Positions 52,704 through 61,673 are shown, numbered from the stretch's first letter. The stretch is DNA of 61,677 nt from Thermoplasmata archaeon (GCA_021801925.1 JAKABH010000004.1:1-61677); one strand, 5' to 3'. Numbers and translations are program-made. Notes: generated from the sequence alone by a model not told the origin.

Positions 52704-54485
52704 ATGGCGCGGATCGCCATCCTCCTCCAGGACCGCTGCCACCCGAAGGAGTGCCAGTGGGAATGCCAGGCCTACTGCCCGCCGGTCCGGATGGGCCAGG
52801 AGTGCATCGTCGAGGGCCCGACCGGCCGCCCAGTGATCTCGGAGACGCTCTGCATCGGCTGCGGCATCTGCGTGCACAAGTGCCCGTTCGATGCGATCAA
52901 GATCCTGAACACCCCCCAGGCCCCGGAGTCGGAGATCGTCCACCGCTACGGGTACAACGGGTTCCGGCTCTATCGGCTGCCGATGCCGCCGCCGACCGGG
53001 GTCTCGGGGCTCCTCGGCGCCAACGGGATCGGCAAATCGACGGCGCTCCGCCTGATCGCCGGCCGCGAGGTGCCGAACCTGGGGCAGTACGATCGCCCCG
53101 CGTCGTGGGAGACGGTGCTGGCCCGGTACCGGGGGACGGCGTTCCACGCCCATTTCGAGAAGATCGCGAAGGGGACGTTCCGCACCGCGCTAAAGCCGCA
53201 GTACGTGGACGCGATCTCCGACCTGCCCGGCTCGGCCTACGACTACGTCGCCGCCGGCGGGGGGGATGCCCGGCGGGGCCTGCGCGACGTCGGGCTCGCG
53301 GAGAGCCGGGCGGACCGGCCCCTCTCCGAGCTCTCCGGCGGGGAGCTCCAGCTCACGGCGATCGCCCGGCTCCTCTCGACCGACGCCGACCTCTACCTCA
53401 TCGACGAGCCGTCGAGCTACCTAGACATCGTCCACCGCCTGGACGTCGCCCGGCTGATCCGCCGTCTCGGCGAGACGAAGAGCGTCCTGGTCGTCGAGCA
53501 CGACCTGGCGCTCTTGGACTACATCGCCGACCAGTCGCACCTGCTCTACGGCGCCTCCGCCGCGTTCGGCGTCGTGAGCCATCCGATCCCAATGCGCTCG
53601 GCGATCAACACCTACCTGGGCGGCTACCTCAAGGACGAGAACGTCCGGTTCCGGACGGAGGCGATCCGCTTCGTCGCCCACCCGCCGAAGCCGCGGACGC
53701 GCCAGAACCTCCTCGTGGAGTTCCCCCCGCTCACGAAGGTCTTCCCGCGGTTCACCGTCTCCGTGGGCGCCGGGCAGATCCCGAAGGGCGAGACGGTCGG
53801 CGTCGTCGGCCCGAACGCGACGGGGAAGACGACGTTCGTCCGGATGCTCGCCGGGGTGGAGCCGCCGACCGAGGGGACGCCGCCCGCCGGCGTGACGGTG
53901 AGCTACAAGCCGCAGTACCTCAAGGCGACCCAGCGGGCGAGCCTGCGGGAACGGGCCGAGGCGCTCGCCGCCGATCCGGCGTTCGACGCCCGCCTCCTGG
54001 AGCGGGAGCTCGTGCCCGGGCTCCACCTCGAGGAGACGATGGACGTGCCGCTGCCGGACCTCTCGGGCGGCGAGCTCCAGCGGACGGCGGTCGCGCTCGC
54101 GCTCGCGCGGGTGGCGACCGTCTACCTGCTGGACGAGCCGTCCGCCTACCTCGACGCCGACGAGCGGATCGCCATGGCGCGCCTGCTGCGCCGGCAGATC
54201 GAGCGGCAGGCGGTCGGCGCGCTGGTCGTCGACCACGACGTCTACTTCCTCGACCTCGCCTGCGACGCGCTCATGGTCTTCCGCCCCGAGGGGACCGACG
54301 GCGCGGCGGGCCGCGGGGACGGGCCGTACCCGATGCGCGAGGGGATGAACCGGCTCCTGCGCACCGTCAACGTCACGTTCCGGCGGGACGCCGAGACGCT
54401 CCGCCCCCGCATCAACCGGGAAGGATCGGTGCTCGATCGCGAGCAGCGGGCCCAGGGCGAGTACTACTACGAGCCGGCCGCCTGA
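52704..54485 (+). CDS. Ribosome recycling ATPase ABCE1 (RLI)
   Basis: N-terminal 2x[4Fe-4S] motifs (CHPKEC..CP, CIGCGICVHKCP), two ABC domains, FRRD..RPRIN. Confidence 0.96.
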   Translation: MARIAILLQDRCHPKECQWECQAYCPPVRMGQECIVEGPTGRPVISETLCIGCGICVHKCPFDAIKILNTPQAPESEIVHRYGYNGFRLYRLPMPPPTGVSGLLGANGIGKSTALRLIAGREVPNLGQYDRPASWETVLARYRGTAFHAHFEKIAKGTFRTALKPQYVDAISDLPGSAYDYVAAGGGDARRGLRDVGLAESRADRPLSELSGGELQLTAIARLLSTDADLYLIDEPSSYLDIVHRLDVARLIRRLGETKSVLVVEHDLALLDYIADQSHLLYGASAAFGVVSHPIPMRSAINTYLGGYLKDENVRFRTEAIRFVAHPPKPRTRQNLLVEFPPLTKVFPRFTVSVGAGQIPKGETVGVVGPNATGKTTFVRMLAGVEPPTEGTPPAGVTVSYKPQYLKATQRASLRERAEALAADPAFDARLLERELVPGLHLEETMDVPLPDLSGGELQRTAVALALARVATVYLLDEPSAYLDADERIAMARLLRRQIERQAVGALVVDHDVYFLDLACDALMVFRPEGTDGAAGRGDGPYPMREGMNRLLRTVNVTFRRDAETLRPRINREGSVLDREQRAQGEYYYEPAA

Positions 54486-54707
54486 TGCCGACGGGGGACG
54501 GAGCGGGCCGGGGGCGGGCCCAGCTTCGGTTCGCGGCCCGGTCTCCCATCGGGCGGAATCGGCCGACCGGCGCGCCCCGGCGGCGCCGGGTGCCCGAAGA
54601 AGGGTATGTAGGAGTGGCGCGCTTCCCGGCGACGGGTGGGGGCCGACGGCGGGAACGGGTCCACGGCGCCCGGGACGCGTTGGCGACCGCGCGGGGAGGC
54701 GCGCCGC

Positions 54708-55295
54708 GTGACTCCACCGGGAGCCGACGCCGTCTCCCCGGCCGCGACGATCCCCCCGCGGCTCGACCGCCTCGGCCGCTACCGGGCCCGCGCCGACTTC
54801 TCCTACGGCGTGATCGCGTTCTACCTGCTCCTGCTCCTGCTGATCGGCGTCTTCCTGCAACCCCCGAAGACCGCGCTCTGGGCGGCGCTGCTCCTCGCGA
54901 TCGCCGTGATCGGGTTCCTCGCCCGCTACCTGTCGACGCACTACGTGATCGACGCCGACTACCTCCGGGCGAGCCGGATCCTGGGCGGCCAGAAGGTCCG
55001 GCTCCGGGAGGTGCGTCGCATCGAGTTCGTGAGCCTGCGCGAGCTCAGCGCAACCGGGTTCTGGGGATCGTGGGGATGGCGGGGACGGATGTGGAGCCCG
55101 CGCATCGGGCAGTTCGACTGCATCCACACGACCACGAACGGGATCCTCGTGACGGCCGGGACCCATCCGCTGTTCGTCACGCCCGTCGACCGCGCGGCGT
55201 TCGCCGAGGAGCTCTCCCGACGGGTCCGTTCGCACGGCGCGAAGCTCCTCGCCGACGAAAGCGCGGCCCCGCCGGCCGCCCCCCGACCGTACTGA
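54708..55295 (+). CDS. Membrane protein with bacterial-type PH domain
   Basis: Two N-terminal TMs, STHYVID..L, GWRGRMW, LFVTPVDRAAF. Confidence 0.7.
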   Translation: MTPPGADAVSPAATIPPRLDRLGRYRARADFSYGVIAFYLLLLLLIGVFLQPPKTALWAALLLAIAVIGFLARYLSTHYVIDADYLRASRILGGQKVRLREVRRIEFVSLRELSATGFWGSWGWRGRMWSPRIGQFDCIHTTTNGILVTAGTHPLFVTPVDRAAFAEELSRRVRSHGAKLLADESAAPPAAPRPY

Positions 55296-55352: not shown

Positions 55353-56804
55353 TCAGTAGCTCGGCCAGCTCGGATCGACCTCGCGGGCCCAGCCGCGGAG
55401 CCCGTCGCGCAGCGAGCGGACGTTCGTGACGCCGAGCTCCCGCAGCCATCGGGCGGCCTGGGCGGAACGGGCCCCGCTGCTGCAGTAGAGCACGAGGCGC
55501 GGCGCCGACGTGAGCTCGCCGAGCCGCTCCACGAGCGCGGCCCGCGGGATCCGGGTCGCTCCCGGGAGGAGACCGATCTCCCACTCGGGGGGGTCCCGCA
55601 CGTCGACGAGCCGCGGCGGGTCCGGGCCCCCGAGCGCCGCGGCCAGCTCCGTCGCCGAGATCTCGGGGACGTCGTCCGGGAGGGAGTCGCCCGCGGCATC
55701 TTCCCCCCCGCAGAACGCCGCGTAGTCGATGAGTCCCGTTTGCGTCGCCGTGGGGGAGCAGAGGTCGCAGGTGGGGTTGCGCCTAAGGCGGAGCTCCCGG
55801 AACGCCATCGCCTGCGCATCGAACAGCAGGAGCCGGCCGACGAGCGGCTCGCCGATCCCGAGGAGGAGCTTCATCGCCTCTGTCGCCTGGATCACGCCGA
55901 TCAGTCCCGGCAGGACCCCCAATACGCCCGCCTCGGCGCACGACGGCACGAGGTCGGGGGGCGGGGGGGCCGGGTAGAGGCAGCGGTAGCAGGGGCCGCG
56001 GCGGGCATCGAAGACCGTCGCCTGACCCTCGAACCGGTAGACCGAACCGAAGACGTCCGGCTTGCCGAGCAGCACGCAGGCGTCGTTGACGAGGTAGCGG
56101 GTCGGGAAGTTGTCGCTCCCGTCGATCACCACGTCGTACGGACGAAGCGTCTCGAGCGCGTTCTCGGCGGTGAGACGGTCCGGGTGGATCGAGACGTGGA
56201 TCCCGGGGTTCATCGCGCGGAGGCGATCGCGGGCAGCCTCGGGCTTGATCCGGCCGACGTCCGCCTCCGTGTAGAGGACCTGCCGCTGGAGGTTCGACGC
56301 ATCGACGCGGTCGAAATCGACGAGCCCGATCTCCCCGACCCCCGCCGCCGCGAGGTAGAGCGCCGCCGGCGAGCCGAGGCCGCCGGCGCCGACGAGCACG
56401 ACCTTGCCGGCCCGCAGCCGCCGCTGGCCGACCGCGCCGACCTCGGGGAGCAGCAGATGGCGGCTGTACCGCACCAGCTCCTCCCGGCGGAACGACCGTT
56501 CGTCGGTTTCGCCGTCCGGCCGCTCGCTGCCGCCGGCGAGGGCGGGGATCACCTCGAGGACATCCCCGTCCTCTAGGCGGGTCGCACCGCCGTCGGCCTC
56601 GCGCACGTCACGATCGTTGAGGTAGAGGGCGACCGACGACCGCAGCTGCCCGTCGGGGGCGAGGAGCCGGGGGCGAAGTGCGGGATGGCGCTCGGCGAGG
56701 CGCGCCGCCGCGGCCGCCACCGTGTCGGCCTCGATCGGCACCTCGGCGGCGCCCCCGGCGAGCGCGCGGAGCGGCGACGGCAGCCGGAACGTCACGCGGC
56801 TCAC
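55353..56804 (-). CDS. Ubiquitin-like (MoaD/SAMP) - E1 (MoeB/ThiF) - rhodanese fusion protein
   Basis: Beta-grasp domain ending IPALAGG, then RYSRH, GAGGLG, SNLQRQ, DGSDNFPTRY, CYRC, SCAEAG, CDLC, and rhodanese DVR..LYCSSGARS. Confidence 0.93.
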   Translation of the reverse strand: MSRVTFRLPSPLRALAGGAAEVPIEADTVAAAAARLAERHPALRPRLLAPDGQLRSSVALYLNDRDVREADGGATRLEDGDVLEVIPALAGGSERPDGETDERSFRREELVRYSRHLLLPEVGAVGQRRLRAGKVVLVGAGGLGSPAALYLAAAGVGEIGLVDFDRVDASNLQRQVLYTEADVGRIKPEAARDRLRAMNPGIHVSIHPDRLTAENALETLRPYDVVIDGSDNFPTRYLVNDACVLLGKPDVFGSVYRFEGQATVFDARRGPCYRCLYPAPPPPDLVPSCAEAGVLGVLPGLIGVIQATEAMKLLLGIGEPLVGRLLLFDAQAMAFRELRLRRNPTCDLCSPTATQTGLIDYAAFCGGEDAAGDSLPDDVPEISATELAAALGGPDPPRLVDVRDPPEWEIGLLPGATRIPRAALVERLGELTSAPRLVLYCSSGARSAQAARWLRELGVTNVRSLRDGLRGWAREVDPSWPSY

Positions 56805-57337
56805 GGCGACGCCCCAAGGCTCGCCGGACGGATACGGCTTGTCGGTACGTCTTCGGGCAGGCCGGCCGCCCCGACCGCCCGGAGCGGCGCTCCCGGGCCG
56901 GGCCCGCGCTCGTAGACGGCGATCGCTTTCTCGCCGTCCGCCTCGACCGCGACGATCGCCGCCAAAAGGCCGGGGAGCGCCTCGACCTGGTCGATCGCGG
57001 ACGGATCCGCGGTGCCGTCGGGATGGGAGTGGAAGACCCCGACCCAACGGTCGCCTCGCCCGCGCAGGATCGTCCGGAGCTCGTCCGGGTCGATCGCGAA
57101 CCGTCGGCCCCGGTCGATCGGCGCGGCGTTCCGGCACGGAACGACGACGACTCCGCCCGCTCCCGTGCCCCGGTCTGTCCCCCGGGCCGGCGGGGCGAAC
57201 CACACCCCGCACGCCTCCTCGGGGTAGGCGGCGAGCGCGAGGGCGCCGATCCGTCGTCTACCCTCCGCTCCGAGCGGCGAGCCGCTCCGGTGCATGTTCG
57301 CGCCGGTCCCGGTTCGGCCGGGGTGGGGGTCCGTCAC
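56801..57337 (-). CDS. JAMM/MPN+ (Mov34) metalloprotease
   Basis: YPEEACG, FHSHP-x6-S-x2-D; GTGA overlaps on both sides (alternative ATG at 57295). Confidence 0.85.
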   Translation of the reverse strand: MTDPHPGRTGTGANMHRSGSPLGAEGRRRIGALALAAYPEEACGVWFAPPARGTDRGTGAGGVVVVPCRNAAPIDRGRRFAIDPDELRTILRGRGDRWVGVFHSHPDGTADPSAIDQVEALPGLLAAIVAVEADGEKAIAVYERGPGPGAPLRAVGAAGLPEDVPTSRIRPASLGASP

Positions 57338-57981
57338 TGCAGCTGGATCAGATGGGAGCACCGGAGCCCGCCGCGGCCGATTGAATCCTCGAGGGCGACC
57401 CCGGCTTCCCCGAGGAGCGCTTCGGTGAGGTTCTTGTCGAAGACCTCGCAGAGCAGGTACGGGTGGCTGAGCGCGCTGTGGCGGAAGACGCAGTTCGTCC
57501 GGACGATGCGGGCGCCGCCGTCGGGGCCGACCTCGACCGTGCAGCGGAAGCCGAGCCGGTTCAACGCCTTCACGAGATGGTCGAGCCGCTCGGGCTCGGG
57601 CGCGTCCTTCGGGATCGACTTCGCGATCTCCGCGGCCATGCGCCGCGCCGACTGGACGAACAGCGCGCTCACGAACCCTTCCCCCTCCCGGGCGAGCAGC
57701 TCGTTGATCAGCGTGTCGAGGATGAGATCGTACTTCTTGGGGAACAGCCCCTGTCCCTGCTCGGTGAGGACGTACCGCTTCCGGGGTCGGCCGACCCCTT
57801 CCCGATGGAACGCCGGCGCGACGAGCCCCCGTCCTTCCATCCGGTCCAGGTGGCCCCGCGCCGCGCTCTCCTGGATGCCGAGCTTCGTCGCGAGGTCGCG
57901 GGCCGTGCGCGGGGCGACCGCCAGCTCCTCGAGGATCCGGCCCCGGGTCCCCTCGAGCCCCTCGACGTCGCTCGCGCCCAT
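57334..57981 (-). CDS. SufR-like wHTH transcriptional regulator with Cys-ligand C-terminal domain
   Basis: TRGRILEEL..ARDLATKLGI..HL, GVGRPRKRYVLT, NCVF..LC..RC. Confidence 0.85.
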   Translation of the reverse strand: MGASDVEGLEGTRGRILEELAVAPRTARDLATKLGIQESAARGHLDRMEGRGLVAPAFHREGVGRPRKRYVLTEQGQGLFPKKYDLILDTLINELLAREGEGFVSALFVQSARRMAAEIAKSIPKDAPEPERLDHLVKALNRLGFRCTVEVGPDGGARIVRTNCVFRHSALSHPYLLCEVFDKNLTEALLGEAGVALEDSIGRGGLRCSHLIQLQ

Positions 57982-58037
57982 GGTTCGGTAGCGGCTCCCT
58001 TGCGACCGGTCGGTCGGATTTACGCACCGCGCCATGC

Positions 58038-58044
58038 TTAAATA
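58038..58044 (+). promoter_or_regulatory. TATA box of sufC
   Basis: TTAAATA about 28 nt before ATG 58072. Confidence 0.6.
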
Positions 58045-58071
58045 ACGGTATCGGCTCGTTGGGTCGGTATC

Positions 58072-58845
58072 ATGGCGACGAACCCGACGCAGCACGTGCT
58101 TGAGGTGAAGGAGCTCCGGGCCGAGGTCGCCGGCAAGGAGATCCTGAAGGGCGTCACCCTCACCCTCCGCAGCGGCGAGATCGCCGCGCTCATGGGCCCG
58201 AACGGCTCGGGGAAGAGCACCCTCGCCTACGCCCTCATGGGCCATCCGAAGTACAAGGTCACGCACGGGTCGGTGACGATGGACGGCCACGACCTCCTTT
58301 CGATGAGCGTCGACCAGCGGGCGCGCGCCGGTCTGTTCCTCGGCTTCCAGTACCCGCAGGAGGTCTCCGGCCTCTCCCTCTCCAAGTTCCTGTGGACCGC
58401 CCACATGCAGCGGCACACCCCCGAGAACGCCGATGCCCCGGCGTTCGACCGCGATCTCAAGTCCCACCTCGGCATCCTCGGGATGGACGACTCGCTCCTC
58501 AAGCGGAGCCTGAACGAGGGGTTCTCGGGCGGGGAGAAGAAGCGGGTCGAGGTATTGCAGATGGCGACGCTCCGGCCGACGTTCTCCATCCTGGACGAGC
58601 CGGACTCCGGCCTCGACATCGACGCGGTACGCGCCGTCGGGGAGACCGTGGCGAAGATCCACCGGCCGGACGCGGGGATCCTCGTGATCACGCACTACCA
58701 GCGCATCCTGAAGTACGTGAAGCCCGATCGGGTCTTCGTCATGGTCGACGGCGCGATCGCCCTGCAGGGTGGCCGGGAGCTCGCGGAGGAGCTCGAGGCG
58801 AAGGGGTACGACTGGGTCCGCATCGGGATCGCCGAGGCGGCGTAG
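58072..58845 (+). CDS. sufC: Fe-S assembly ATPase SufC
   Basis: MGPNGSGKSTL, FQYPQEV, NEGFSGGEKKR, LDEPDSGLDID, ITHYQRIL. Confidence 0.96.
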   Translation: MATNPTQHVLEVKELRAEVAGKEILKGVTLTLRSGEIAALMGPNGSGKSTLAYALMGHPKYKVTHGSVTMDGHDLLSMSVDQRARAGLFLGFQYPQEVSGLSLSKFLWTAHMQRHTPENADAPAFDRDLKSHLGILGMDDSLLKRSLNEGFSGGEKKRVEVLQMATLRPTFSILDEPDSGLDIDAVRAVGETVAKIHRPDAGILVITHYQRILKYVKPDRVFVMVDGAIALQGGRELAEELEAKGYDWVRIGIAEAA

Positions 58846-58864
58846 GTCGCGACCGGACCGGTTG

Positions 58865-60121
58865 ATGGACGTCGCGCGCCTCCGCGCGGATTTCCCGATC
58901 CTGGAGCGGAAGTTCCACGGACTTCCGCTCGCCTACCTCGACAACGCGGCGACCTCCCAGAAGCCGCGGCCCGTCCTGGACGCCGTCCGGGAGTACTACT
59001 TCCGGGAGAATGCCAACCCCCACCGGGGCGTCTACGGGCTGAGCGTCGAAGCGACGTACGCCTACGAGAACGCGCGGGTGCGGATGGCGCGGTTCCTCAA
59101 CGCCCCGGATCCCGCGGGGGTGATCTTCGTCCGCGGCGCGACCGAGGGGCTCAACGTCGTGGCGACGAGCCTCGGGGTCGGGCTCGAGCGGGGCGACCGG
59201 GTGCTCACCACCGTCATGGAACACCACTCGAACCTCGTCCCGTGGGCGTTCCTCCGCGACCGGAAGGGGATCGTCCTCGACTACCTCGACATCGACGACG
59301 ACGGCCGGCTCCGCCTCGACCAGCTCGACGAGCAGCTCCGGCGGAAGCCGAAGGTCGTCGCGCTGACGCACGTCTCGAACGTCCTCGGCACCGTGAACCC
59401 GGTGCGCGCGATCGCCGATCGCGCCCACGAGGTCGGGGCGACGGTCGTGGTCGACGCGGCCCAGTCCGCCCCCCATCGGAAGGTCGACGTCCAGGCGCTC
59501 GGCGCGGATTTCCTGGCGTTCTCGGGTCACAAGATGCTCGGGCCGATGGGGATCGGGGTCCTGTGGGGGCGCCCGGAGCGACTCGCCGTCCTGCCGCCGG
59601 CCCAGGGCGGCGGGGAGATGATCCGCGAGGTCCACCAGGACCGTGTCGAGTTTCGCGAGCCCCCCGGGCGTTTTGAGGCCGGCACCCCGAACGTCGGGGG
59701 AGCGATCGCCCTCTCGGCGGCCGCCGACTACCTGGAGCGGATCGGCTGGGAGGAGCTCGCCGCGCACGAACGCCAGCTCGCGGATCGGTTCCTCCGCCGG
59801 CTCCGCGACCAGATCGGGGAGGAGATCCGGCTCTTCGGGCCCCCGACCCTCGACGACCGGGAGGCGGTCTTTTCCTTCGCGATGCGGGGGGCGCATCCGC
59901 ACGACGTCGCCTCGCTGCTCGACGCCGACGCCGTCGCGGTGCGGGCCGGCCACCACTGTGCCCAGCCGCTGATGGAGCGGCTCGGCGTCCCGGCGCTGAC
60001 CCGGGCGAGCCCGTACCTCTACAACACCCCGGACGAGATCGACCGGCTCGTCACCGCCCTCGAGAAGGTCCGCCACCTTTTCGCGACCCCGTCGCCCTCC
60101 AGCGGCCGCGGGGCCGCGTAA
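58865..60121 (+). CDS. sufS: Cysteine desulfurase SufS
   Basis: YLDNAATSQKP, MEHHSN, SGHKM, RFEAGTP, RAGHHCAQP. Confidence 0.96.
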   Translation: MDVARLRADFPILERKFHGLPLAYLDNAATSQKPRPVLDAVREYYFRENANPHRGVYGLSVEATYAYENARVRMARFLNAPDPAGVIFVRGATEGLNVVATSLGVGLERGDRVLTTVMEHHSNLVPWAFLRDRKGIVLDYLDIDDDGRLRLDQLDEQLRRKPKVVALTHVSNVLGTVNPVRAIADRAHEVGATVVVDAAQSAPHRKVDVQALGADFLAFSGHKMLGPMGIGVLWGRPERLAVLPPAQGGGEMIREVHQDRVEFREPPGRFEAGTPNVGGAIALSAAADYLERIGWEELAAHERQLADRFLRRLRDQIGEEIRLFGPPTLDDREAVFSFAMRGAHPHDVASLLDADAVAVRAGHHCAQPLMERLGVPALTRASPYLYNTPDEIDRLVTALEKVRHLFATPSPSSGRGAA

Positions 60122-60226
60122 AGGACGCCCTCCTACCCGTCCGTGTCGCGAAGGGCCCTACAGCCGCGGCTCCGGCAACACCGGCCTCGGTAGCGGGGTC
60201 GTGTCGCCTCGGCGGCTACCTGCTAA

Positions 60227-60233
60227 TTAAATA
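60227..60233 (+). promoter_or_regulatory. TATA box of sufB
   Basis: TTAAATA about 28 nt before ATG 60261. Confidence 0.6.
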
Positions 60234-60260
60234 CTCTGACGTGCTGGAATTGCCGAGATC

Positions 60261-61673
60261 ATGGCGCAGAGCACCTCGGACGTTACTCCTCTCGACTACA
60301 CCCGGTACGACTTCAAGAATCCCGAGACGTACCGCCTGCGCATCGCGAAGGGCCTGACCCGCGAGGTCGTCGAGCAGATCTCCGACTTCAAGCACGAGCC
60401 CGACTGGATGCGGCAGTACCGCCTGCGCGCCTACGAGCATTTCGTGGAGCGGCCGATGCCCGACTGGGGGCCGAGCCTCGCGGAGCTCGACTTCGACTCG
60501 TACACGTACTACGCGAACCCGCTCCTCGAGGGAGAGACGAAGCGGAGCTGGGAGGATCTCCCCGCGGACATCAAGAACACGTTCGACAAGCTCGGGATCC
60601 CGAAGGCGGAGCGGGAGTTCTTCGGCGGCGTCGGGGCCCAGTACGACAGCGGGACCGTCTACCACAAGATCCGCGAGGACCTCCAGGCGAAGGGGGTCCT
60701 GTTTACCGATACCGACACGGCGGTCAAGGAGCATCCCGAGATCGTCCGGAAGTACTTCGGGAAGATCGTCCCGTACAACGACAACAAGTTCTCCGCGCTC
60801 AACAGCGCCGTCTGGTCGGGCGGGAGCTTCGTCTACGTCCCGCCGGGGGTCGACGTCGGGATCCCGCTCCAGGCCTACTTCCGCATCAACGCGCGGAACG
60901 TCGGGCAGTTCGAGCGGACGCTCATCATCGCCGACAAGGGGGCGAAGGTCCACTACGTCGAGGGGTGCACCGCCCCGATCTACTCCACCGACTCCCTGCA
61001 CGCGGCGGTCGTGGAGGTCGTCGCCGAACCGTACGCCAAGGTCCGCTACACGACCGTCCAGAACTGGTCGAAGAACGTCTACAACCTGGTGACGAAGCGG
61101 GCCGTCGCCTACGAGCAGTCGCTCGTCGAATGGGTCGACGGCAACATGGGGTCCAAGGTGACGATGAAGTACCCGTCGGTCTACCTGCGCGGCCGCGGGG
61201 CCCGGGCCGACATCCTGTCGGTCGCCTTCGCGAGCCAGGGGCAGATCATCGATTCGGGGGCCAAGGCGGTCCACTCCGCCCCGGACACGTCGAGCAAGAT
61301 CATCTCGAAGTCGATCGCGATCCGCGGCGGCCAGACGAGCTACCGGGGCCTCCTCCACGTCGCCCCGGGGGCGACCGGGGTGAAGGCGGCGGTCCGCTGC
61401 GACGCGCTGCTCCCGGACGAGCTCGGCCGCTCCGACACCTACCCGTACAACGAGATCCACGAGGAGGACGCGACCGTGACCCACGAGGCGGTCGTCGGGA
61501 AGATCGGCGAGGAGCAGATCTTCTACCTCATGAGCCGCGGGCTCAACGAGTCGGACGCGATCCACCTGATCCTGATGGGGTTCCTCGCGGAGTTCGCGAA
61601 GGAGCTGCCGGTCGACTACGCCCTCGAGCTGAACCGGCTGATCCAGCTCGAGATGACCGGTTCGGTCGGATAG
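60261..61673 (+). CDS. sufB: Fe-S assembly scaffold SufB
   Basis: EPDWM, SAVWSGGSF, GQFERTLI, EGCTAP, VRCDALL, HEA, YLMSRG, MTGSVG. Confidence 0.97.
   Translation: MAQSTSDVTPLDYTRYDFKNPETYRLRIAKGLTREVVEQISDFKHEPDWMRQYRLRAYEHFVERPMPDWGPSLAELDFDSYTYYANPLLEGETKRSWEDLPADIKNTFDKLGIPKAEREFFGGVGAQYDSGTVYHKIREDLQAKGVLFTDTDTAVKEHPEIVRKYFGKIVPYNDNKFSALNSAVWSGGSFVYVPPGVDVGIPLQAYFRINARNVGQFERTLIIADKGAKVHYVEGCTAPIYSTDSLHAAVVEVVAEPYAKVRYTTVQNWSKNVYNLVTKRAVAYEQSLVEWVDGNMGSKVTMKYPSVYLRGRGARADILSVAFASQGQIIDSGAKAVHSAPDTSSKIISKSIAIRGGQTSYRGLLHVAPGATGVKAAVRCDALLPDELGRSDTYPYNEIHEEDATVTHEAVVGKIGEEQIFYLMSRGLNESDAIHLILMGFLAEFAKELPVDYALELNRLIQLEMTGSVG

Follow-up and report, generated by a model that had tools for sequence, protein, structure and literature searches.

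The region described here lies at positions 55,353 to 61,673 of a 61,677-nucleotide stretch of DNA (hereafter the window; all positions are counted from its first letter) from an uncultured acid-mine Thermoplasmata archaeon (GCA_021801925.1, JAKABH010000004.1:1-61677), whose assembly comprises 1.57 Mb in 89 contigs and is 94.67% complete. In this region of about 72% G+C, three genes are read on the minus strand, encoding a SufR-like regulator, a JAMM metalloprotease and a polyprotein in which a ubiquitin-like (Ubl) domain of the ThiS family, an E1 adenylation domain and a rhodanese follow one another in a single chain (Table 1). Divergently from them, as an earlier note on this DNA had proposed, and across an intergenic region of 90 bases, run sufC, sufS and sufB, all three of which pass their NCBIfam cut-offs.

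Table 1. Features of the window, with positions along the whole 61,677-nucleotide stretch and the basis of each assignment
Feature	Position	Strand	Basis
SufR-like (COG2345-type) regulator, 215 aa	57334..57981	-	MarR_2/HTH_5, TIGR02702
Mec+-type JAMM/MPN+ metalloprotease, 164 aa from ATG	56801..57295	-	Prok-JAB PF14464 E 4e-14
ThiS-ThiF-rhodanese polyprotein, 483 aa	55353..56804	-	Pfam
CysO/SAMP1-like Ubl domain, residues 1-92, ends PALAGG	56529..56804	-	ThiS PF02597
Gly91-Gly92 codons; proposed JAMM cut after Gly92	56529..56534	-	direct reading; docking model
Variable acidic linker, residues 93-112	56469..56528	-	alignment, predicted local distance difference test (pLDDT)
MoeZ/MoeB-type E1 adenylation domain, residues 113-366	55707..56468	-	ThiF E 3e-83
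Rhodanese domain, residues 378-483, active-site Cys441, and stop codon	55353..55673	-	Rhodanese E 6e-17
Conserved intergenic core	58016..58059		comparison of 44 orthologous intergenic regions
sufC	58072..58845	+	TIGR01978 315.6 bits (cut-off 212.8)
sufS cysteine desulfurase	58865..60121	+	TIGR01979 539.9 bits (cut-off 475.1)
sufB, contig end directly after	60261..61673	+	TIGR01980 677.6 bits (cut-off 346.4)
ABCE1/RLI-type gene: N-terminal Fer4_RLI, 4Fe-4S domains, two ABC cassettes	52704-54485	+	Pfam
Open reading frame convergent with the fusion gene	54636-55295	+	weak bPH_5, 21.1 bits, below cut-off 22.5

The three minus-strand genes had been described as chained by GTGA overlaps, and both overlaps are real in the sequence: the regulator TGA (57336-57334) overlaps a GTG at 57337-57335, and the JAMM TGA (56803-56801) overlaps the GTG start of the fusion (56804-56802). 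The first of them may not be the start that the JAMM gene uses, since comparison with 25 orthologs favours an ATG at 57295 over the GTG at 57337 as the N-terminus.

The polyprotein carries three Pfam domains, ThiS at residues 8-92 (E 1.2e-11), ThiF at 113-347 (E 3e-83) and Rhodanese at 383-474 (E 6e-17), and the same three are present in 118 of its 120 best database homologs. An internal Gly-Gly had been read at 56534-56529; this position is exact and corresponds to Gly91-Gly92 of the fusion, directly followed by SERPDGETDERSF, with 391 residues lying downstream of the diglycine (GG). In an alignment of 37 sequences, comprising the query and 36 of the best 120 homologs picked for long contigs or source names, P87, A88, A90, G91 and G92 are invariant (37/37), as are the GxGxxG motif, the two CxxC pairs and Cys289 of the E1 and Cys441 of the rhodanese; the stretch after the GG varies in both length and sequence. 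The acidic linker, the intact E1 and the rhodanese with its cysteine, all described previously, are confirmed. AlphaFold2 returned three confident domains (mean pLDDT 81.1; predicted template modelling score 0.59), with a pLDDT of 75-93 over Ubl residues 1-80 and below 50 over residues 88-103, which hold the GG tail and linker, both predicted to be flexible. Among curated models, the E1 exceeds the cut-off of MoeB NF006444 (473.7 bits, cut-off 449), and three scores fall below theirs: SAMP1 NF041918 on the Ubl (53.3 bits, cut-off 60), MoeZ NF005902 on the fusion (441.4 bits, cut-off 647) and the model of UbaA, the SAMP-activating E1 (312.6 bits, cut-off 450). Homologs of the polyprotein are annotated simply as MoeB, a name that conceals the carrier as well as its predicted requirement for processing.

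The junction between Ubl and E1 is bridged by contigs from four public runs of four studies, one of which may be the source sample, and zero indels are listed. Runs X1, X5 and X12 have zero substitutions listed at 56496-56540, and a minor contig of run X9 (depth 6.8 of 11.8) has eight differences in 56508-56537, four of which were checked and none of which creates a stop codon. The earlier note had named a stop after the GG as evidence that would speak against its reading; none was found among the bridging contigs of the four runs, with four of the eight X9 differences checked. These contigs, together with the 118 three-domain homologs, rule out an assembly error as the source of the fusion. 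One of the X9 differences reads as a change of the otherwise invariant Ala90, and this contig probably belongs to a related strain. The summed contig depth rises 10- to 70-fold in all four runs at 56057-56144, the conserved DNFPTRYL region of the E1; this jump is cross-mapping of short contigs from other organisms and not a matter of copy number.

To place the operon among its relatives, we used a sample of the order comprising 121 genomes, 113 of them with a match, in counts that include the unpublished G015, G029 and G043. Within the host's own family, 106 of 114 other genomes match the fusion at E 1e-30 or better, most over the whole length; two other families of the order have an E1 without Ubl or rhodanese. 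Stretches of 13 kb were compared from 40 genomes with a full-length match and from 10 of 13 in which the match begins no earlier than residue 72 (the other three, G072, G082 and G095, are truncated or interrupted and were left out), and five outgroup stretches were added. The 50 stretches other than the outgroups and the window make up 51 Thermoplasmata loci, hereafter the family loci. The most frequent arrangement, found in 28 of the 51 (one cut by a contig end), sets sufB-sufS-sufC against regulator-CysM-JAMM-fusion. Nine loci carry, as the window does, regulator-JAMM-fusion and suf without CysM, and four have CysM-JAMM-fusion or JAMM-fusion without regulator and suf. In six, the regulator is directly followed by E1-rhodanese, with no space for Ubl or JAMM; in one (L169), regulator, a separate Ubl ending in ALAGG and a stop, and E1-rhodanese follow each other without JAMM; and the last three have E1-rhodanese alone. 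Linkage to the regulator and suf is kept in 44 of the 51, so that it is not unique to this genome, a point for which the earlier note had proposed a synteny survey.

That note had reported no cysteine synthase, MoaE or tRNA thiolase next to the operon, which is true within the window, and had left the output of the system open. The relatives supply an answer for the ancestral state. A CysM-type cysteine synthase stands between regulator and JAMM in 28 of the 50 related loci, and the operon CysMs of these relatives show 56-72% identity; in L002, the PALP gene has cysM as its best match (315 bits, below the cut-off of 394). A quick tree requires at least three losses of CysM and at least two losses of Ubl plus JAMM, and in it L149, with the full operon, is sister to L163 (without CysM) plus L167 (without CysM, JAMM and Ubl), with support of 95 and 94 in the Shimodaira-Hasegawa-like approximate likelihood ratio test (SH-aLRT).

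The same type of operon extends well beyond this order. An alignment query against contigs of one genome per species gave at least 601 matching stretches, the best 80 of which are mostly bacterial and include Gemmatimonadota, Acidobacteriota, Chloroflexota and Bacteroidota. With our own profiles, neighbours in these 80 loci were counted if they lay no more than 3 kb upstream on the same strand. Fused Ubl, JAMM and CysM occur together in 47; a separate Ubl with JAMM and CysM in 11; a fused Ubl with JAMM and without CysM in four; a fused Ubl with neither in two, one of them at a contig edge; and the remaining 16 show other combinations. CysM is encoded in the operon in 60 of the 80, and Pfam matches on 115 of 230 neighbouring open reading frames show a recurrent order of PALP enzyme, Prok-JAB and fusion. 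These counts, with those of the relatives, indicate that the ancestral output was cysteine, formed through the M. tuberculosis type of pathway. In L017, L040, L049, L052 and others, from Acidobacteriota and Bacteroidota, Ubl and E1-rhodanese are in frame and parted by one stop codon, which sits at the GG or a few residues beyond and through which tblastn reads; fusion and fission are therefore one mutation apart. As judged from its gene content, the window operon derives from the CysO/CysM/Mec+/MoeZ thiocarboxylate operon by loss of CysM; this makes it a variant of a described type and not a new system.

Some further arrangements were seen in these loci. An Acidobacteria metagenome-assembled genome encodes a CysM-like PALP domain and Prok-JAB in one frame (L027:168-1460, plus strand), an apparent CysM-JAMM fusion upstream of Ubl-E1-rhodanese. 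Rrf2-family regulators adjoin the fusion operon in the bacterial loci L013, L032 and L036, and in L018, L026, L033, L036 and L050 it is followed downstream by class-V aminotransferases or sufBCS. A link to Fe-S or cysteine-desulfurase genes thus recurs outside archaea, under a different regulator.

The earlier note had also proposed that the JAMM enzyme frees the Ubl from its own E1, and this is most likely the case, in view of the distribution of the protease among relatives and of a docking model that sets the GG in its active site. The ExnHxHx7Sx2D motif is intact in the window copy (Glu27, His89, His91, Ser99 and Asp102), and the catalytic residues are invariant in 26 of 26 aligned sequences. 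JAMM adjoins all 41 fused family loci and none of the 10 unfused ones, including L169, in which the Ubl already ends at the GG. Four of the unfused genomes have one Prok-JAB match each; these are orthologs (63-67% identity) of a second JAMM encoded elsewhere in the host genome and not of the operon JAMM, and a fifth unfused genome, 88% complete, has no Prok-JAB match. In the 80 loci from other species, tblastn with the window JAMM, a copy too diverged for this purpose, detected no JAMM at E 1e-5, and a profile built from the aligned JAMM set was used for the counts instead. JAMM stands upstream in 51 of 53 fused cases; among 16 bacterial loci with a separate Ubl, it is present in 11 of 11 with 1-14 residues after the GG and in one of five with a Ubl ending exactly at the GG, one of the four without it being at a contig edge. 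The coexistence of fused, split-after-GG and deleted forms among the relatives, with JAMM only beside the fused one, offers a natural test of why such operons carry a JAMM.

Docking of the JAMM (26-row alignment) against residues 1-112 of the fusion (37 rows) gave an interaction score from predicted aligned errors (ipSAE) of 0.72, the best control reaching 0.01; the mark used is attained by 116 of 157 solved complexes and by 2 of 215 mismatched pairs, a rough calibration since our own alignments were used. The docking runs share at least 74% of contacts, with a partner pLDDT of at least 79. In the model, Ubl residues 86-95 lie on JAMM residues 27, 29-31, 89, 91 and 99-102, and JAMM His89 and Asp102 contact Gly91. 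The result is to be read as likeness to known JAMM-Ubl complexes, not as proof that the window copy binds.

The second JAMM of the host, 178 aa with an HSHPSG motif, is encoded at C34:4076-4612 on the minus strand beside an apparent NAD kinase gene. It has no NCBIfam match at 1e-10, and its type persists in relatives that lost the operon JAMM.

A genome-wide inventory gives the fusion a further significance that the earlier note had missed, namely that it holds the only E1 found in the genome: it is the one ThiF-family protein of this kind above cut-off. Three ThiS-family Ubls were found. Besides the fused domain, contig C88 carries a free one of 88 aa with a terminal GG, and contig C9 a MoaD with a terminal GGG, encoded directly ahead of the one MoaE found. 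A single PP-loop protein has NcsA as its best match over the full length (252 bits, cut-off 500). Because the E1 is the only one, E1-rhodanese must act in trans on the Ubls of MoaD/MoaE and of the NcsA type. No CysM ortholog was found in the 94.67%-complete genome; its closest PALP protein reaches 39% identity and has cystathionine beta-synthase as its family match (475 bits, cut-off 510), and the PALP genes of five other relatives without CysM likewise show only 38-43% identity. This cystathionine beta-synthase-like enzyme, with C-terminal CBS domains, is encoded at C2:5463-7992 on the plus strand and is overlapped by a few bases by an open reading frame that reads as a pyridoxal-phosphate enzyme of cysteine and methionine metabolism, of the gamma-lyase or synthase type. 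The pair is likely to form a reverse-transsulfuration route to cysteine in this CysM-less host.

The regulator probably connects this operon with the suf genes. Its helix-turn-helix families (MarR_2, HTH_5) match at residues 8-56, and the cyanobacterial SufR model TIGR02702 matches at E 2.5e-10 over profile positions 13-208 of 208, with 40.4 bits against a cut-off of 178.8. A GVGRPRKRY motif resembling an AT-hook is conserved in 44 orthologs, and three cysteines, Cys164-x13-Cys178-x29-Cys208, are invariant in 44 of 44 (Cys147 occurs in 27). SufR/COG2345 proteins are described, in the available part of a preprint (10.64898/2025.12.26.696629), as having a winged helix-turn-helix, a central GRP AT-hook, and three cysteines plus a fourth, non-cysteine ligand; the cluster cysteines of M. 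tuberculosis (Mtb) SufR are C179, C192 and C220, so that the x13/x29 spacing of the window protein is close to its x12/x27. Candidates for the fourth ligand in the window protein are Glu179 and the invariant Asp182. Against PDB sequences, the regulator matched only one ArsR-family winged-helix protein (2p4w, E 9.5e-4, residues 5-73), which is uninformative on the sensor domain.

The intergenic region has a conserved core at 58016-58059, in which two A/T-rich tracts surround a G+C-rich centre; in its strict 29-nt form the core recurs in 31 of 44 orthologous regions, and most core columns are at least 70-90% conserved, the flanks not. An imperfect inverted repeat, ATTTAAGCA-N8-TGCGTAAAT in minus-strand reading, lies at 58018-58043. 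According to the same preprint, the palindrome bound by SufR/COG2345 is flanked by A/T-rich sequence, and archaeal homologs are proposed to lie upstream of suf. We regard the core as a probable shared operator combined with divergent archaeal TATA boxes, and the A/T tracts may equally be two such boxes; a scan for sigma-70 promoters and terminators, a method unsuited to archaea, gave no match. The designation as SufR-like made in the earlier note is therefore upheld by the winged helix-turn-helix, the GRP AT-hook, the three invariant cysteines and the element between the divergent arms, and SufR-type control shared by the Ubl operon and suf appears to be the best reading. The core constitutes a concrete candidate for an archaeal SufR-like operator.

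Taken together, we consider it probable that the locus is a CysM-less thiocarboxylate operon under a SufR-like regulator, in which the JAMM unblocks a fused carrier. The 483-aa polyprotein would be a precursor that the adjacent JAMM cuts after Gly92, giving a Ubl of 92 residues that ends in a GG carboxylate, with E1-rhodanese as the second product. Adenylation of the Ubl by the E1 would be followed by its conversion to the thiocarboxylate through the persulfide of the rhodanese, which SufS or another cysteine desulfurase would probably load. Freed E1-rhodanese would also charge MoaD, beside MoaE, for molybdopterin, and the SAMP2/TtuB-like Ubl for NcsA-type tRNA thiolation. In most relatives, the Ubl thiocarboxylate would serve CysM in the synthesis of cysteine, on which SufS acts, and this supply would explain the link of the operon to suf and SufR. 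In the window genome CysM appears to have been lost, with cystathionine beta-synthase and gamma-lyase taking its place, and the JAMM would be kept mainly to unblock the fused pair.

One E1-rhodanese would then be the hub of several sulfur pathways, cysteine in the relatives and molybdopterin and tRNA thiolation here, placed physically and probably regulatorily beside Fe-S assembly, a setting that bears on the sulfur source of archaeal Ubl systems. A bolder and rather doubtful extension is that the fusion acts as a zymogen-like lock on the only E1, the tethered Ubl filling the carrier site in a form that cannot be adenylated until the JAMM cuts. If so, molybdopterin synthesis, tRNA thiolation and any conjugation would be off until cleavage, a SufR-like Fe-S sensor would switch all thiocarboxylate sulfur traffic together with Fe-S assembly, and the joint keeping or joint loss of JAMM and fused Ubl after CysM loss would be explained.

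Several observations weigh against the account of a JAMM-unblocked carrier. The window JAMM is the most divergent of its group, with 27-38% identity to the others, and lacks a tryptophan that is conserved in them after the motif; the docking pass may stem from likeness to solved JAMM-Ubl complexes. Of the 80 loci, 64 have a JAMM, and 58 of these have CysM too; owing to this co-variation part of the JAMM signal reflects the known function of Mec+ in freeing cysteine from CysO. Translation from an in-frame GTG at Val110 could yield a Ubl-less E1 independently of the JAMM, and with CysM gone the freed Ubl would lack its ancestral user in this genome. About 5% of the genome is missing and could hold a second E1 or a CysM. 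The independent losses were counted on a quick tree with SH-aLRT support and not on a careful one. As for the sulfur donor, by analogy with described systems we infer that SufS passes sulfur to the rhodanese, and this is put no more firmly because a second class-V aminotransferase (C54, 353 bits) is a possible donor in its place.

The freed Ubl might instead be a SAMP-like modifier of proteins, with the E1 acting as UbaA and the JAMM as desampylase as well as precursor-maturing enzyme. Matches to the models of SAMP1 and the SAMP-activating E1 (53.3 and 312.6 bits), and of the JAMM to the desampylase model (31.9 bits), point in this direction, as do the invariant Cys289 and the absence of a CysM that would consume the thiocarboxylate. 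All three scores, however, lie below the curated cut-offs (60, 450 and 130, respectively), and orthologous Ubl and JAMM accompany CysM in 28 of 50 relatives, so we regard conjugation as unlikely; it is at the same time compatible with JAMM unblocking of the carrier, not exclusive of it. Loss of CysM could also have left the Ubl domain and JAMM as functionless passengers heading for deletion, as the stepwise series L149, L163, L167 and the unusual divergence of the window JAMM would suggest. Yet neither frame is interrupted, the JAMM has retained every catalytic residue and the Ubl its GG, and the CysM-less layout is found in eight other family genomes and four bacterial loci; moreover, leaving the fused Ubl attached to the sole E1 would probably do harm, so that selection for cutting would be expected. 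A relic therefore seems quite improbable.

That the Ubl is never released, and forms a structural or regulatory part of the E1, has been argued for another Ubl-ThiF fusion family that co-occurs with a separate ThiS, in the accessible text of PMC1779556. For the window family, the invariance of the GG, the co-occurrence of JAMM with the fused form, and the orthology of the fused Ubl to separate carriers that end in GG or GG plus a tail at the same operon position make such a cis domain very unlikely. The earlier note had further considered the Ubl as a sulfur carrier for SUF, its thiocarboxylate bringing sulfur from SufS to the SufBC scaffold. Tight and conserved linkage to sufCSB with a shared control region would fit this, and no SufE or SufU was seen in the window (genome-wide they were not searched for). 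The idea is nevertheless disfavoured, and we consider it highly improbable, since six relatives keep regulator, E1-rhodanese and sufCSB with neither Ubl nor JAMM in the locus, and four of the six lack the operon JAMM type genome-wide; in these relatives SUF works without the Ubl/JAMM pair.

Two other genes lie on the far side of the fusion. ABCE1/RLI is an archaeal or eukaryotic marker and, taken with closest homologs from metagenome-assembled genomes of Thermoplasmata, assigns the window to an archaeon of that class. The open reading frame convergent with the fusion gene has a hydrophobic N-terminal half.

Among known systems, HcyS/HcyD is a methionine system. In M. tuberculosis, according to the available text of PMC3227635, which cites Burns 2005 for the pathway, MoeZR turns CysO into a thiocarboxylate, CysM then adds O-phosphoserine, and the CysO-cysteine adduct is finally hydrolysed by Mec+; MoeZR serves both MoaD and CysO, and its sulfur source is described there as unknown, with desulfurase-to-rhodanese transfer described in the same paper and in the accessible text of PMC5925218. 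The window operon resembles this pathway in its GG-ended Ubl carrier, its E1 ending in a rhodanese domain, and a JAMM hydrolase predicted to cleave behind the GG; an E1 serving MoaD as well as a cysteine carrier is a further likeness, and relatives of the window have CysM in the operon. Unlike the Mtb pathway, the window carrier forms one chain with its E1, with the GG internal, and no CysM was found in the genome; the host is an archaeon, and a SufR-like regulator and sufCSB accompany the operon. In the classification of Iyer, Burroughs and Aravind (2006, PMC1779556), type 4b consists of ThiS/MoaD, E1-rhodanese and JAB, and type 4c adds a cysteine synthase, as seen in the available part of that paper; the window thus corresponds to 4b and its relatives to 4c. 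There, both types come from bacteria and encode the Ubl apart from the E1, and the accessible text mentions neither an archaeal SufR/suf pairing nor a sole E1. Given these types, the locus is less novel than the earlier note had implied, and archaeal Ubl-E1 fusions were noted in 2010 (PMC2948915, accessible portion).

A blocked GG that needs proteolysis is likewise known elsewhere. JAMM trims residues after the GG in QbsE and CxnE, as stated in the available part of PMC5925218, and the clusters QbsE/QbsD and CxnE/CxnF encode a JAMM; MoaX, a MoaD-MoaE fusion, must be cut after the GG (PMC4326299, available part). The block in the window differs from these in being a 391-residue activating enzyme instead of a tail of 2-10 residues or MoaE, and cleavage here is predicted. 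With SufR/COG2345 [4Fe-4S] repressors (the preprint cited above and PMC6034842, in their accessible sections), the window regulator shares the winged helix-turn-helix, the GRP AT-hook, three similarly spaced cysteines, the suf neighbourhood and a probable A/T-flanked target; unlike cyanobacterial SufR, it reaches only 40 bits, is divergent from suf and heads a Ubl operon. The Haloferax SAMP/UbaA/HvJAMM1 system, as far as described in the accessible text of PMC4443979, also relies on a single archaeal E1 for several Ubls (molybdenum cofactor, tRNA thiolation and possibly conjugation), and HvJAMM1 cuts after GG, as is predicted for the window copy. UbaA, in contrast, has neither rhodanese nor fused Ubl, and the window proteins score below the cut-offs of the Haloferax-type models.

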